Below, in pieces: positions 1 through 5,004 of a stretch of 5,418 nt of DNA; positions within the stretch are counted from its first letter, which is position 1; every line of letters begins with the position of its first letter. The notes beneath the pieces were generated by a model. The model did no database searches. It was given only the letters and a program-made list of their open reading frames with translations, and was not told the DNA's origin. Origin of the DNA: a virus (Duplodnaviria; Heunggongvirae; Uroviricota; Caudoviricetes); the IMG/VR virus record IMGVR_UViG_2541047960_000010, one strand, 5' to 3'. A program made the position numbers and the translations under genes.

Positions 1-1143
1 CTATGCTGTTTTGATATCTACGATAATCCAGTCTTTACCACGATCATCATTGTATCGGTCGGTCATTTTTCTGGATTTATGGCCTAACAACTTTTGCGTA
101 TCCAGACCCTGTTCCCGATATAACCGTTCTGACAGAGATCGCTGCTCATGAAATGTGGGCGCAGTTCCTGGCTCCCATTTTATGCCACATTTTTCCCTGG
201 CCTTTTTAAAAGCCGTTGTAAGAGTATTTGCAGAAACCTGGTCTCCTCTGTTTGCTTGAGAGGTAGTGTGACGGTAATGGACCAGATATTTACTAACAAC
301 AGCATCCCTGCACTGAGATATAACTTCACGAAGGGTAATATTTAGAGCATCGCATTTCAGGCTAAGCGGAATAGCAAGTTTTGAACCGGTTTTTTCCTGA
401 GTAATGTGCAACATGTCGTCCCATATATCAGAGAATTTCAAATTGCAGATATCGCCTAAACGTTGTCCAGTAACAAGAGCAAGTAGCATGCCGCATTTTA
501 AATAGGGCTGCCGTCTGCTTACGCTTTCAAATATTGCCTGCCATTCGGGCAGTGATAATCTTTGGCGGTTTACTCGATTTCGCGGTTGTTTTGTTGCCTG
601 CGCTGGGTTAAATCCTGGCGGAACATGTCCTGCGTGTTGTGCTTCTTTGAAGACGTCGATCAACACCATTCTCACGACTTGCGCCATCCTGTTATGACCT
701 TCAGCCTTTACAGCATCAATTATTTCGGCAATATCAAGTGCGGTAATATCCTTGAGGTGTTGCATTCCACAATGCTCACGGAAAAGACGAATGGGTTTAC
801 CTTTTTGCCGATAGGAGTTGGGTTTTAGTTCATTATGTTGCAGCCTGTCCTCCTGGATAGAAATATATTTATCAAGCCATTCTGTCACCGTAATGTCTGA
901 GCGCCTGCCTTTCATTCTTTCTAGACGCTCATTGACGCTTAATATTTGTCGGGTACGTTGTTCAGCAATAATGGTATTTGCTTCAGTAGCAACTTGTTTT
1001 GCTTCATTCTCATCAGTTCCTAAGCTATGAAAACGACCGGATAGTGGATGTTTGTATTGCCAATATACCTTTCCGGTTCGCTTATCTAATTTGCAATATA
1101 AATTGGGTATAGAGATTTTGTGAGATCGGGGTCTAGCAGCCAT
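1..1143 (-). CDS. int: Lambda-family tyrosine integrase (site-specific recombinase), complete; stop codon at window bases 1-3
   Basis: 380-aa ORF. N-terminal arm-binding-like region (MAARPRSHKISIPNLY...) resembles lambda Int (MGRRRSHERRDLPPNLY...). Catalytic signature in lambda-like context: Arg in LVTGQRLGDI, His-x-x-Arg in FHEQRSLSERL, and LLGHKSRKMTDRY carrying the nucleophilic Tyr. Start overlaps the upstream xis by 11 nt, as is typical for xis-int pairs. Clearly divergent from lambda Int, so a different att specificity is expected. Confidence 0.9.
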   Translation of the reverse strand: MAARPRSHKISIPNLYCKLDKRTGKVYWQYKHPLSGRFHSLGTDENEAKQVATEANTIIAEQRTRQILSVNERLERMKGRRSDITVTEWLDKYISIQEDRLQHNELKPNSYRQKGKPIRLFREHCGMQHLKDITALDIAEIIDAVKAEGHNRMAQVVRMVLIDVFKEAQHAGHVPPGFNPAQATKQPRNRVNRQRLSLPEWQAIFESVSRRQPYLKCGMLLALVTGQRLGDICNLKFSDIWDDMLHITQEKTGSKLAIPLSLKCDALNITLREVISQCRDAVVSKYLVHYRHTTSQANRGDQVSANTLTTAFKKAREKCGIKWEPGTAPTFHEQRSLSERLYREQGLDTQKLLGHKSRKMTDRYNDDRGKDWIIVDIKTA

Positions 1144-1369
1144 CAGCGATTATCCGTTGGAGTTTTGGGTTTGCGTTTATTGGGAGTTGCGGTTCTGCAA
1201 GCGTTCCTACAAAACGGGAATTTCGGTCAATCATCCAGTAGCGACCAACTTTTATAGCGGGTGGGGCCATCATTTTCCCTTGCGCGTATTTTTTCAGAAC
1301 TCGCTCACTTGGTGCTAAGTCCCCAAATTCTTCTTTAGCCCAGTCCTGTAAAGTGATTAGTCGAGACAT
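1133..1369 (-). CDS. xis: Excisionase, lambda Xis-like winged-helix directionality factor
   Basis: 78-aa ORF immediately upstream of and overlapping int. N-terminus MSRLITLQDW and PPAIKVGRYWMI parallel lambda Xis MYLTLQEW and PPPVKDGREYLF. Strong RBS (AGGAGG, about 5 nt before the ATG at 1369). Confidence 0.75.
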   Translation of the reverse strand: MSRLITLQDWAKEEFGDLAPSERVLKKYAQGKMMAPPAIKVGRYWMIDRNSRFVGTLAEPQLPINANPKLQRIIADGC

Positions 1370-1508: not shown

Positions 1509-1748
1509 CTATTTCCTGCGTATGGCACGTAACTTCTTAATGTGTTCTGCTGTATCGATCTCTTCGGCTATCCGATCTGCATCAGCTTTATTCACAGGTT
1601 CAAAGTCATGATTAAAGCGGAACATGCTGGCGATACATGTTCTGCCTTTTTGGATGTAGTGAACTTTGTTGTGGGTAGAACGCAGGATTTTGCAGGGAGT
1701 GCCGTGGTGGTCGACGTACCAGGTGTTAGGAAAAATGATTCTGAACAT
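1509..1748 (-). CDS. Hypothetical small protein (79 aa), accessory early-left cargo
   Basis: Open frame with an ATG at 1748 preceded by GAGGTG at about 6 nt; same orientation as the operon and tightly packed (47-nt gap to the upstream gene). No family recognised from the sequence alone. Confidence 0.5.
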   Translation of the reverse strand: MFRIIFPNTWYVDHHGTPCKILRSTHNKVHYIQKGRTCIASMFRFNHDFEPVNKADADRIAEEIDTAEHIKKLRAIRRK

Positions 1749-1795: not shown

Positions 1796-2014
1796 TTACA
1801 ATCCCCATTGTTTGTTCTTAAGTTCGATCTCCTCCTGGCAACTTGCACAAGTCCGACAACCCTGAACGGCCAGGCGTCTTCGCTCATCTATGGGATCGCC
1901 ACACTCACAACAATGAGTGGCAGATATAGCCTGGTGGTTCAGGCGGCGCATTTTTATTGCTGTGTTGCGCTGTAATTCTTCAATTTCTGATGCTGAATCA
2001 ATGATGTCTGCCAT
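1796..2014 (-). CDS. DksA/TraR-family C4 zinc-finger protein (phage TraR-like regulator of host RNA polymerase)
   Basis: 72-aa ORF with a Cx2C-x(17)-Cx2C motif (CCECGDP...GCRTCASC) near the C-terminus, preceded by a helical N-terminal region. Size and motif arrangement match F-plasmid TraR and the lambda orf73 type. Confidence 0.8.
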   Translation of the reverse strand: MADIIDSASEIEELQRNTAIKMRRLNHQAISATHCCECGDPIDERRRLAVQGCRTCASCQEEIELKNKQWGL

Positions 2015-2073
2015 CTTCCATTAATCCCTGAATTGTTGGTTAATACGCTTGAGGGTGAATGCGAATAATAGAA

Positions 2074-2092
2074 AAGGAGCCTGTAGCTCCCT
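2074..2092 (-). terminator. Candidate intrinsic terminator or attenuator hairpin on the leftward transcript
   Basis: Minus-strand RNA reads AG-GGAGC-UACAG-GCUCC-UU followed by a U-rich tail (UUCUAUUAUU): a 5-bp GC-rich stem extendable to 7 bp with one G-U and one A-U pair, 5-nt loop. It sits 21 nt downstream of the 71-aa ORF stop and before the TraR-like gene. The stem is short, so this is weak. Confidence 0.25.
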
Positions 2093-2112
2093 GATGATTT
2101 TGCTTTTCATGT

Positions 2113-2328
2113 TCACCGTTCCTTAAAAACGCCGTTTAACATGCCGATCGCTAGGCTTAAATGAGTCGGTGTGAATCCCATCAGCGTTACCGTTTCGCGG
2201 TGCTTCTTCAGTACGCTACGGCAAATGTCATCGACGTTTTTATCCGGAAACTGCTGTCTGGCTTTTTTGATTTCACAATTAGCCTGACGGGCAATGCTGC
2301 GAAGGGCGTTATTATGTTCTATTGTCAT
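2113..2328 (-). CDS. Hypothetical small protein (71 aa), immediately downstream of the TGT-fold gene
   Basis: The six-frame track gives a 117-aa ORF (2113..2466), but its first 46 codons overlap the end of the 250-aa gene in another frame. The internal ATG at 2328 sits 7 nt after that gene's stop with GAGG spaced 5 nt (TGAGGCCAAT-ATG), so the 71-aa product MTIEHNNALRSIARQ... is the better model. Confidence 0.5.
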   Translation of the reverse strand: MTIEHNNALRSIARQANCEIKKARQQFPDKNVDDICRSVLKKHRETVTLMGFTPTHLSLAIGMLNGVFKER

Positions 2329-2335
2329 ATTGGCC

Positions 2336-3088
2336 TCACACTTCGAATGCCAGCTGAGGGGTAAAGACGTCCCGTTCAGCGTTGTAATTAAGTGAACTGG
2401 CACTGTTGAATGATTCAATGCGTTCCACAAGAACTTGCGTACGGGTTTCTTTACTTGCGGGAGCATATGGCGAACCTACCCAGGATTTGTCGATGCCTAT
2501 ATTTCTTGCGACGTTCGTGCTGTCTGCAGACGAAAGCGGTACATGAGTAAAAATGTCTTTATTTAACATCCGTAACCCATGAATCTTGGTGATTGGGTAG
2601 CCGTACTGATCTACAACATGACGTATAAGATCGCGTAGTTTAGCCCGACACGCTCTCGGTCGTTTTGCATCGTATTCCCCCATCGAGCCGATGCAGACGC
2701 GGGGAAACTCATGGCACAGACGAATAAATCGCTCATCTGGTTCGTTCATGTGCCACACCGGAGCACCAATAAATTTACCGTGAGGCCATGCCGCAATCAG
2801 GGCGTCATTCTCTTCACTGGTTCCGCCGATAACATCCGGGATAACCGCGAATGAGAAACGAGGGTGATTACCCCAGCGTTCAACAAATCTGTAATATTCA
2901 TTCCAGTCTACGGCCTTGTTTTTTGTCCAGAATGTGAATGCACCATTATCAAGAGCAAATGATTGGGTGACTTCGGAAGCCAGATCAATCTGAGCTGGAT
3001 TAGCAAAACTGATGAATGCGTGTCTGCCTTTCCAGGCTTTCAACGCACAGGTATCGGGAGTTATTGGACCACCGTGAAAATGAATCAT
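2336..3088 (-). CDS. TGT-fold (tRNA-guanine transglycosylase superfamily) protein lacking the zinc subdomain; putative DpdA-like DNA 7-deazaguanine transglycosylase
   Basis: 250-aa ORF, RBS GGGAGAG before the ATG at 3088. Motifs line up in order with the TGT TIM-barrel active-site elements of Zymomonas TGT: FALDNGAF vs LTDSGGYQ (Asp102 region), AVIPDV vs MAFDE (Asp156 region), CIGSMGEY vs AVGGLAVGE, and SSADSTNVARNIG vs MFDCVLPTRSGRNG (nucleophile Asp280 region). No CxCxxC...H zinc motif. The CDS call is solid; the functional assignment is by motif only. Confidence 0.6.
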   Translation of the reverse strand: MIHFHGGPITPDTCALKAWKGRHAFISFANPAQIDLASEVTQSFALDNGAFTFWTKNKAVDWNEYYRFVERWGNHPRFSFAVIPDVIGGTSEENDALIAAWPHGKFIGAPVWHMNEPDERFIRLCHEFPRVCIGSMGEYDAKRPRACRAKLRDLIRHVVDQYGYPITKIHGLRMLNKDIFTHVPLSSADSTNVARNIGIDKSWVGSPYAPASKETRTQVLVERIESFNSASSLNYNAERDVFTPQLAFEV

Positions 3089-3243
3089 ACACTCTCCCGT
3101 TTATTATTTATCTCCTCAGCCAGTCGCTGGGCTTTCAGCGGATTTCGGATAACAGAAGGCCCGGGAAATACCCAGCCTCGCTTTGTAACGGAGTAGACGA
3201 AAGTGATCGCACCTACCCGGATATTATCGTGAGGATGCTTCAT
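3085..3243 (-). CDS. Small ORF (52 aa) translationally coupled between exo and the TGT-fold gene; in the position of lambda orf60a
   Basis: Not in the supplied ORF track (too short). Its ATG (3243..3241) overlaps the exo stop as ATGA, and its TGA (3087..3085) overlaps the next gene's ATG as ATGA. Translation: [52 protein letters not shown]. An in-frame ATG two codons upstream (3249) is an alternative start. Confidence 0.5.
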
Positions 3244-3920
3244 CGCCATTGCTCCCCAAATACAAAACCAATTTCAGCCAGTGCCTCGTCCATTTTTTCG
3301 ATGAACTCCGGCACCATCTCGTCAAAACTCGCCATGTACTTTTCATCCCGCTCAACCACGACATAATGCAGTCCTTCACGCTTCATACGCGGGTCATAGT
3401 TGGCAAAGTACCAGGCATCTTTTCGCGTCACCCACATGCTGTACTGCACCTGGGCCATGTAAGCTGACTTTATGGCCTCGAAACCACCGAGCCGGAACTT
3501 CATGAAATCCCGGGAGGTAAACGGGCATTTCAGTTCAAGGCCGTTGCCGTCACTGCATAAACCATCTGGAGAGCAGGCGGTACGCATACTTTCGTCGCGA
3601 TAGATGATCGGGGATTCAGTAACATTCACGCCGGAAGTGAACTCAAACAGGGCTCTGGCGTCGTTCTCGTACTGTTTTCCCCAGGCCAGCGCTTTAGCGT
3701 TAACTTCCGGAGCCACACCGGTGCAAACCTCAGCAAGCAGGGTGTGGAAGTAGGACATTTTCATGTCAGGCCACTTTTTTCCGGAGCGGGGTTTTGCTAT
3801 TACGTTATGAACTTCTGAAGCTGTGATGACGCCGAGCCGTAATTTGTACCACGCATCATCCCCCTGTTCGACAGCTCTCACGTCGATCCCGGTACGCTGC
3901 AGGATAATGTCCGGTGTCAT
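3240..3920 (-). CDS. exo: Lambda exonuclease (Red-alpha), 5'-3' dsDNA exonuclease
   Basis: 226-aa ORF whose translation ([24 protein letters not shown]...[11 protein letters not shown]) matches phage lambda Exo in length and nearly residue for residue, as recalled. Start ATG overlaps the bet stop (ATGA). Confidence 0.95.
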
Positions 3921-4702
3921 GCTGCCACCTTCTGCTCTGCGGCTTTCTGTTTCAGGAATCCAAGAGCTTTTACTGCTTCGGCCTGTGTCAGTTCTGACGA
4001 TGCGCGAATGTCGCGGCGAAATATCTGGGAACAGAGCGGCAATAAGTCGTCATCCCATGTTTTGTCCAGGGCAATCAGCAGAGTGTTAATCTCCTGCATG
4101 GTTTCATCGTTAACCGGAGTGATGTCGCGTTCCGGCTGGCGTTCTGCAGTGTATGCGGTATTTTCGACAATGCGCTCGGCTTCATCCTTGTCATAGATAC
4201 CAGCAAATCCGAAGGCCAGGCGGGCACACTGAATCATGGCTTTATGCCGTAACATCCGTTTGGGATGCGACTGCCACGGGCCGGTGATTTCTCTGCCTTC
4301 GCGGGTTTTGCATGGTTCGCGGCGGCATTCATCCATCCACTCGGTAACGCAGATCGGATGATTGCGGTCTTTGCGGTAAATCCGGCATGTACATGATTCA
4401 TTGTCCTGCTCAAAGTCCATACCATCAAACTGCTGGTTTTCATTGATGATGCGGGACCAGCCATCAACGCCCACCACCGGAACAATGCCGTTCTGCTTAT
4501 CAGGGAAGGCGTAAATTTCTTTCGTCCACGGATTAAGGCCGTACTGGTTGGCGACGATCAACAATGCGATGAACTGCGCATCGCTGGCATCACCTTTAAA
4601 TGCCGTCTGGCGAAGAGTGGTGATCAGTTCCTGTGGGTCGACAGAATCCATGCCGACACGTTCAGCCAGCTTCCCTGCCAGCGTTGCGAGTGCTGTACTC
4701 AT
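3917..4702 (-). CDS. bet: Lambda Beta (Red-beta) single-strand annealing protein
   Basis: 261-aa ORF ([59 protein letters not shown]...) matches lambda Bet in length and sequence as recalled. Sits between gam and exo as in lambda. Confidence 0.95.
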
Positions 4703-4707
4703 CCGTT

Positions 4708-5004
4708 TTATACCTCTGAATCAATATCAGCCTGATGGTGAGCAATGGTTTCAACTATGTACCGGATGTGTTCTGCCATGCGCTCCTGAAACTCAACATC
4801 GTCATCAAACGCACGGGTAATGGCTTTTTTGCTGGCCCCGTGGCGTTGTAAATGATCGATGCATAGCGATTCAAACAGGTGCTGGGGCAGGCCTTTTTCC
4901 ATGTCGTCTGCCAGTTCTGCCTCTTTCTCTTCACGGGCGATCTGCTGGTAGTGACGCGCCCAGCTCTGAGCCTCAAGACGATCCTGAATGTAATAAGCGT
5001 TCAT
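4708..5004 (-). CDS. gam: Gam, host RecBCD nuclease inhibitor (short 98-aa form)
   Basis: 98-aa [24 protein letters not shown]... matches the C-terminal 98 residues of lambda Gam. RBS AGGAG 7 nt upstream of the ATG. The region upstream still encodes ...IFRSSAM in frame (lambda has ...YFRSSAM) but is closed by an in-frame TAA at 5061..5059, so only the short form can be made. Confidence 0.9.

Follow-up and report, generated by a model that had tools for sequence, protein, structure and literature searches.

We analysed a 5,418-nucleotide (nt) stretch of the virus record IMGVR_UViG_2541047960_000010 (the window, below), in which a gene for a 250-amino-acid (aa) protein of the tRNA-guanine transglycosylase (TGT) superfamily follows the lambda-type Red recombination genes. 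Three ATGA stop-start overlaps on the minus strand join bet to exo, exo to a 52-aa open reading frame (ORF), and the 52-aa ORF to the TGT-superfamily gene (Table 1). A first-pass annotation of the window had listed these overlaps and all three were found where it placed them; in each, TGA closes the upstream ORF and ATG opens the downstream one. The window was 99.96% identical to the prophage adjoining icd in E. coli IAI39, and a 1-kb segment across the junction (2300-3300) was matched at 100% in IAI39, CE10 and four further genomes. Identity to Shigella phage SfI and Escherichia phage PhiR5_1 was ~98%. The RefSeq annotation of the IAI39 prophage, made with the Prokaryotic Genome Annotation Pipeline (PGAP), has the same gene models and the same three 4-nt overlaps. 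The window is the leftward delayed-early operon, of pL type, of a lambda-like prophage that is integrated beside icd in IAI39/CE10-type E. coli. Its genes run in the order gam-bet-exo-orf60a-cargo-orf61, with xis and int at the far end, and Pfam searches found Gam, RecT-family Bet and YqaJ-family Exo in lambda Red order on one strand.

Table 1. Genes, overlaps and terminator-like elements of the window
Feature	Position	Strand	Evidence
ATGA overlap 1, bet stop/exo start	3917-3920	-	Same junction in lambda 32025-32028; Shine-Dalgarno-like AAGGTGG 3925-3931, dG -7.3 kcal/mol
ATGA overlap 2, exo stop/orf60a-homolog start	3240-3243	-	Same junction in lambda 31348-31351; GGGGAG 3252-3257, dG -7.7 kcal/mol
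ATGA overlap 3, orf60a-homolog stop/DpdA-like start	3085-3088	-	Mosaic junction with lambda; GGGAGAG 3092-3098, dG -7.8 kcal/mol
250-aa TGT-superfamily gene of the 'singleton DpdA' type, in the lambda orf63 slot	2336-3088	-	PHROG 887 'queuine tRNA-ribosyltransferase', E 4e-99
52-aa ORF, lambda orf60a homolog (DUF1317)	3085-3243	-	Pfam PF07026; PHROG 1998
exo, lambda exonuclease (YqaJ domain)	3240-3920	-	Pfam PF09588, E 7e-30; 221/226 residues as in lambda Exo
bet, RecT-family single-strand annealing protein	3917-4702	-	Pfam PF03837, E 1.2e-32; 260/261 residues as in lambda Bet
gam (98-aa form), host-nuclease inhibitor	4708-5004	-	Pfam PF06064, E 1.4e-63; 94/98 residues as in lambda Gam
Weak hairpin with T-rich tail inside orf60a (predicted t1 of lambda)	3151-3175	-	Terminator-like match
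Hairpin with U-tract after orf61 (predicted t2 of lambda and Phi24B)	2065-2092	-	Minimum free energy -10.2, z -2.6
orf61 homolog (71 aa)	2113-2328	-	PHROG 303, E 4e-34
DksA/TraR zinc-finger gene	1796-2014	-	PF01258
DUF4222 gene	1509-1748	-	PF13973
xis, excisionase	1133-1369	-	
int, integrase	1-1143	-	

We compared the junctions with those of lambda. The bet/exo and exo/orf60a overlaps are base-for-base the same there and, judged from the alignment, are ancestral lambda junctions held by common descent and not independent events. Over the Red genes and the exo-xis segment the two share gene order, 97% nt identity in the flanks, the orf60a and orf61 homologs and the predicted hairpins t1 and t2, and the flanks of the cargo slot are 97-98% identical to lambda, SfI and PhiR5_1. 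The slot itself differs, with orf63 in lambda and a 753-nt DpdA-family gene in the window. Homology to lambda extends through the ATG at 3086-3088, the start codon of orf63 in lambda, and resumes ~20 nt inside the orf61 homolog, so that the 250-aa gene takes the place of orf63 exactly. In lambda, orf60a continues 28 nt beyond the shared ATG and overlaps orf63 by that length, whereas in the window the incoming gene opens with ATG-ATT, so that orf60a meets a TGA after 52 instead of 60 residues. Since ATG-ATT supplies the stop codon, orf60a lost eight codons and the third ATGA was formed in the same exchange.

The opening codons belong to the incoming family. We collected 44 independent homolog loci (37 species' genomes and 7 phages), and in 40 of them the DpdA-like gene starts with NTGA because its N-terminus, MIH[FY]HG, keeps the Met-Ile pair. 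The usual ATG-ATx opening gives the gene a TGA of its own, out of frame by one base. In 20 loci this TGA is also the stop codon of the upstream gene, and in 12 the upstream gene stops one base into the ATG. Read in this way, the third overlap is a by-product of the Met-Ile start of the cassette. At the other edge of the slot no overlap was formed, and the stop codon of the DpdA-like gene is separated from the start of the orf61 homolog by 8 nt. The orf61 homolog is intact in the window, with 71 codons (2113-2328, minus strand). In lambda (30839-31024) a run of A is one A longer than in the window and SfI, and because of this extra A the annotated lambda Orf61 is in a different frame.

Another cargo was seen at the same site in PhiR30_1, in which a Dam-type N6-adenine DNA methyltransferase gene (1906-2463 of locus L051) fills the slot between orf60a and orf61 and overlaps orf60a by 8 nt. 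Judging by its occupants (orf63, a DpdA-like gene or a Dam methyltransferase), the slot seems to serve as an exchange point for cargo of the DNA-modification kind. The view that this position suits a DNA-modifying enzyme, held by the first-pass annotation, agrees with the PhiR30_1 arrangement.

Chains of overlaps were next set against their background. Four-nt overlaps, nearly all of them ATGA, were found at 14 of 62 same-strand junctions in SfI and at 15 of 63 in lambda (23-24%), and the rightward operon of SfI has a run of four (O/P/Ren/NinA/NinB). With p = 0.23 per junction, a run of at least three overlaps is expected in ~42% of genomes so laid out. Since two of the junctions were inherited from lambda and 4-nt overlaps are common, the chain is unremarkable: it does not exceed what chance or descent gives. 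Among the DpdA-like genes themselves an apparent enrichment (32 of 44 loci against 36 of 125 lambda and SfI junctions, Fisher p = 7e-7) was considered and dropped, because these genes are an NTGA-start family. NTGA opens 45-53% of lambda and SfI genes, and when only genes with such starts are compared, 29 of 61 in lambda and SfI (~48%) and 20 of 40 DpdA-like genes (50%) overlap the upstream neighbour by 4 nt. The automatic overlap calls include some spurious short upstream ORFs, such as a 39-codon call in HK106 that contradicts the annotation of that phage.

These counts bear on an alternative in which the ATGA chain is a dedicated coupling device that ties the TGT-fold enzyme to Exo and Bet, with a functional or stoichiometric link to recombination. 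Three overlaps in succession are what such a device would look like, and ATGA pairs are usually strictly coupled (PMC6728339). A longer chain was observed in an Enterobacter bugandensis prophage (L013, 2055-4753, plus strand), where four consecutive 4-nt overlaps join a bet-like gene, an exo-like gene, a 142-aa ORF (orf142), the DUF1317 gene and the DpdA-like gene, the last with a TTG start behind a strong AGGAGG. The orf60a/dpdA overlap thus recurs in this prophage and in L014, despite Orf60a proteins only ~45% identical to that of the window (the DpdA-like proteins of L013 and the window are 87% identical). Yet lambda, a phage without DpdA, already has two of the three links, the overlap frequency is that of the NTGA-start background, and every gene in the chain has its own Shine-Dalgarno (SD) sequence. 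Three successive reinitiations would moreover be expected to attenuate expression along the chain, not to equalise it.

The wider distribution of the family also speaks against a dedicated link. The exo-orf60a-DpdA-like arrangement was found in SfI, PhiR5_1 and 95 of 5426 complete E. coli genomes (~1.8%), and in diverged form in Enterobacter and Huaxiibacter prophages. Homologs of 60-86% identity follow the O/P replication genes in Klebsiella phage RothD, Salmonella phage SPN3UB and a Tatumella prophage, the erf-abc-ead genes in BTP1, a DksA-like gene in phage Eeyore and, in Vibrio phage Athena1, a cro-like gene. The HK106 homolog (37% identical) stands behind an erf-abc block with a 42-nt gap. 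Others follow Dam (L045) or MT-A70 (L039) methyltransferase genes or a nucleoside 2-deoxyribosyltransferase gene (L047), and in three loci, from one Erwinia genome and two Amaricoccus metagenome-assembled contigs, an ORF of the Vut_1/YhhQ family lies directly upstream with a 4-nt overlap (L038:3537-4001, L040:3480-4001, L041:2517-4001). Across the family the upstream neighbours thus include transporters as well as replication, recombination and methyltransferase genes, and some homologs follow gaps of 2-108 nt. A DUF1317 gene is directly upstream in only two of the 44 other loci (L013 and L014). What these contexts have in common is an early operon close to genes for replication, recombination or DNA modification, and not Red. 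With two links that are lambda architecture, a third that is a by-product of the Met-Ile start, and homologs behind unrelated genes, the earlier claim that the chain ties the gene specifically to Red was not sustained, and we regard a dedicated device as very unlikely.

A partnership between DUF1317 and DpdA was also considered and rejected. Direct adjacency was confined to L013 and L014, four Pantoea loci carry DUF1317 0.5-1.5 kb upstream, and orf60a is common in lambdoid phages that have no DpdA.

We then examined how the downstream genes could be translated. All three starts have their own SD sequence, with dG of -7.3 to -7.8 kcal/mol, which places them in the top 5-9% of positions. Local minimum free energy (MFE) at the starts gave z ~0 and the SD and AUG regions were mostly unpaired. 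We therefore discarded coupling by unfolding, in which RNA structure would mask the downstream ribosome-binding sites. Own SD sequences together with the lack of sequestering structure mean that coupling is possible but not required, and each downstream gene could be initiated from its own SD.

Precedent favours some contribution from the overlaps nonetheless. The geometry is the same as in termination-reinitiation at ATGA/TGATG (Huber et al. 2019; trpB-trpA), and the upstream gene contains the SD in its 3' end. When 14 native stop-start overlap pairs were studied (9 from H. volcanii, 5 from E. coli), the downstream gene depended strictly on translation of the upstream one in 13, with an SD contribution that differed between genes (PMC6728339). 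The bet/exo ATGA of lambda has already been described as a coupling signal (PMC11934132). Some coupling at these junctions is likely, and by these precedents termination-reinitiation at ATGA would probably add to initiation from the SD sequences.

The same data can be read the other way, with the overlaps having no translational role at all: initiation would be independent at each SD, and ATGA would follow from genome compaction and from second codons that begin with A. The well-spaced SD sequences, the unsequestered starts, the frequency of NTGA starts in lambda and SfI and the 8-nt gap between the DpdA-like gene and orf61 are all consistent with this. It is difficult to reconcile with the strict dependence seen in 13 of the 14 native pairs, and we consider it unlikely, although less so than a dedicated device.

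The 52-aa ORF was identified as a homolog of lambda orf60a. It scored 111.6 bits against PF07026 (gathering cut-off 22.3) over profile positions 1-52 of 60, and 48 of its 52 residues are those of lambda Orf60a, which is 8 residues longer. As in lambda, this DUF1317 gene lies directly downstream of exo with a 4-nt overlap. The first-pass annotation had supposed that length-thresholded callers miss the ORF; this is not so, and PGAP and RefSeq list it as 'DUF1317 family protein'. Its lambda homolog was reported to be translated by ribosome profiling, as were neighbouring small ORFs (PMC8614690). Two in-frame start codons are available and we favour ATG 3243 over ATG 3249, because GGGGAG is spaced 7-8 nt from the former and only 1-2 nt from the latter, because the second Met (ATG 3243) is where the Pfam and PHROG profiles start, and because lambda orf60a and PGAP use the equivalent codon. 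The SfI RefSeq record instead starts the orf60a homolog at the ATG six bases upstream.

The transcription signals of the unit were also investigated. In a crude scan, we found no sigma-70-like promoter on the minus strand of the window, and an internal promoter for the 250-aa gene was accordingly rejected as a candidate. Nor did the scan find a strong terminator on the way from bet to the 250-aa gene. The only terminator-like elements were the weak hairpin inside orf60a, within the stretch from bet to the end of orf61, and a better one just after it; they correspond to the sites t1 and t2 earlier predicted in lambda and Phi24B (PMC4195576). The claim that the 250-aa gene shares a leftward early unit with gam, bet and exo is borne out by these scans. 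The hairpin after orf61 is likely to be the 3' limit of the strongly expressed block.

The t1-like hairpin is weaker in the window (MFE -13.4 kcal/mol, z -0.9) than in lambda (-18.1, z -3.3). The weakening maps to a change of GGCCTTT to GGGCCTT (window 3140-3190, minus strand), which also gives L29P in Orf60a; SfI retains the lambda version. By sequence, the weakened t1 could increase read-through into the DpdA-like gene. Beyond orf61, a 31-aa ORF (2021-2116, minus strand) has a GTG start that overlaps the stop codon of the orf61 homolog as GTGA, and it contains the t2-like hairpin. In SfI the matching region carries an annotated hypothetical protein of 29 aa (gp32), and PGAP leaves the IAI39 copy unannotated.

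The window does not reach the promoter pL, nutL or N, which synteny with SfI and lambda puts upstream. In lambda and Phi24B the transcripts of orf60a, orf63 and orf61 are as early and as abundant as that of N (PMC4195576). On synteny and these data, the unit would be transcribed from pL with N antitermination, and the DpdA-like protein would be made early, along with the Red proteins. Early synthesis of the 250-aa protein is expected from position alone. The first-pass annotation had derived early production from the ATGA chain; the timing stands on the pL-operon position and does not follow from the chain.

We next turned to the 250-aa protein itself. It shows a TGT-type (beta/alpha)8 barrel fold, and membership of the TGT/DpdA superfamily, as first proposed for this gene, is supported by PHROG 887, by the fold and by profile comparisons. 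A profile of 51 diverse family members was aligned by hhalign to the validated DpdA of phage CAjan with a probability of 98.8% (E 8.4e-17, 173 columns). Five residues, D47 (in LDNGAF), H170, S187, D189 and S190, are invariant in the 51 members and D85 is nearly so. In the hhalign alignment CAjan DpdA has LDSGAF, H and CDS at D47, H170 and D189, and a Ser at D85; the equivalences with TGT and Cap10 were drawn from motif order and not from superposition. No Pfam model, the TGT model (PF01702) included, matched the 250-aa protein or any of the 51 members, and PDB gave no match by sequence or by profile. Bacterial TGT enzymes carry a C-terminal zinc site with the motif CxCxxC...H. We found no such C-terminal Cys cluster in the 250-aa protein, in which Cys occurs only at 14, 125, 132 and 147. 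The validated CAjan DpdA likewise has no zinc-site Cys cluster, and the site is therefore not defining for phage DpdA.

With 6182 clusters at 90% identity, mainly from Enterobacterales, Aeromonas and Vibrio prophages, the family is a large one, and the gene belongs to a known branch of it. The SfI counterpart, gp34, is 100% identical over all 250 aa by tblastn, and Supplementary Data 1 of Hutinet et al. 2019 lists gp34 (YP_009147480) as a 'singleton' DpdA. The same survey places SfI gp34 with HK106, BTP1, SPN3UB and 7-11 in group 3, the singleton DpdA of gamma-proteobacterial phages. Nothing essential differs between these and the gene studied here, which is the E. coli prophage copy. Singleton-DpdA phages would rely on host preQ0, and their hosts, Clostridium and Mycobacterium excepted, encode the full Q pathway (Hutinet et al. 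2019). Among the window ORFs we found no que (preQ0-synthesis) genes and no DpdB partner. Compared with CAjan DpdA (306 aa) and a bacterial DpdA (PDB 7ui4 chain, 413 aa), to which it is ~16-19% identical, the 250-aa protein is shorter, lacks a Pfam TGT match and is not accompanied by FolE, QueD, QueE or QueC. In CAjan, dpdA (28848-29971 of locus L050) has a 4-nt overlap upstream and a 1-nt overlap downstream and sits beside DNA polymerase genes.

In CAjan, deletion of dpdA abolished dPreQ0. By family membership, the window enzyme most likely replaces guanines of DNA, at low density, by a 7-deazaguanine made by the host (preQ0 or a derivative). The YhhQ-family neighbours in three loci support a deazaguanine substrate, since this is a family of preQ0 transporters.

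Several observations weigh against this assignment and the expression model built on it. By sequence, the 250-aa protein had no match in Pfam, NCBIfam or PDB, and Foldseek with it returned only generic TIM barrels. The closest structural match was Cap10 and not DpdA, with generic TIM barrels scoring at most 12.2. DNA of Salmonella phage 7-11, a member of the singleton group, had only 0.02% of G as dADG, and in Mycobacterium phage Orion, of the same group, there was none. For this particular prophage, coupling, N-dependence and the limits of the transcript are features that we infer.

The first of these observations raise the alternative that the protein acts with 7-deazaguanine on tRNA or on a protein-linked base and not on DNA, possibly in early counter-defence or host takeover. 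Its invariant H170 and D189 resemble the catalytic pair H226/D248 of Cap10, DNA modification is marginal or absent in the tested singleton-DpdA phages, and the authors of the DpdA survey say that this subset may have diverged in function (Hutinet et al. 2019). However, the hhalign alignment links the family to a validated DNA enzyme, and its neighbours frequently act in DNA modification or nucleotide metabolism (Dam, MT-A70, nucleoside deoxyribosyltransferase, YhhQ-like). Cap10 of type IV CBASS (PDB 9ntn) is only 10% identical to the 250-aa protein and is encoded in a defence operon with Cap9 and a CD-NTase, whereas the window gene lies in a phage early operon, and we found no Cap9/QueC-like or CD-NTase partner in the window. 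We judge a non-DNA target improbable.

More specific roles can be proposed for the lambdoid singleton-DpdA clade, either early counter-defence on a non-DNA target or a coupled DNA-targeting module with Orf60a/DUF1317, a predicted DNA-binding protein. They are suggested by Cap10 as the closest fold, by the Cap10-like His/Asp pair, and by the adjacency and 4-nt overlap with DUF1317 in two diverged backbones. We give such roles little chance of being correct.

Taken together, the data are best explained by an ordinary lambda-type pL operon with ancestral junctions, into which a DpdA-family cargo was swapped at the orf63 start codon, giving a putative deazaguanine enzyme that would be expressed early, and we hold this reading to be probable with good confidence. 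A full-text literature search for the locus tags and accessions gave no match. Public annotation or the literature already contains the overlaps, the small ORF and the assignment to DpdA. As a discovery the chain carries little weight, its architecture being ordinary, inherited and annotated. An inducible E. coli or Shigella prophage that carries it (IAI39, CE10 or SfI) would offer a convenient system in which to study the function of the singleton-DpdA clade.

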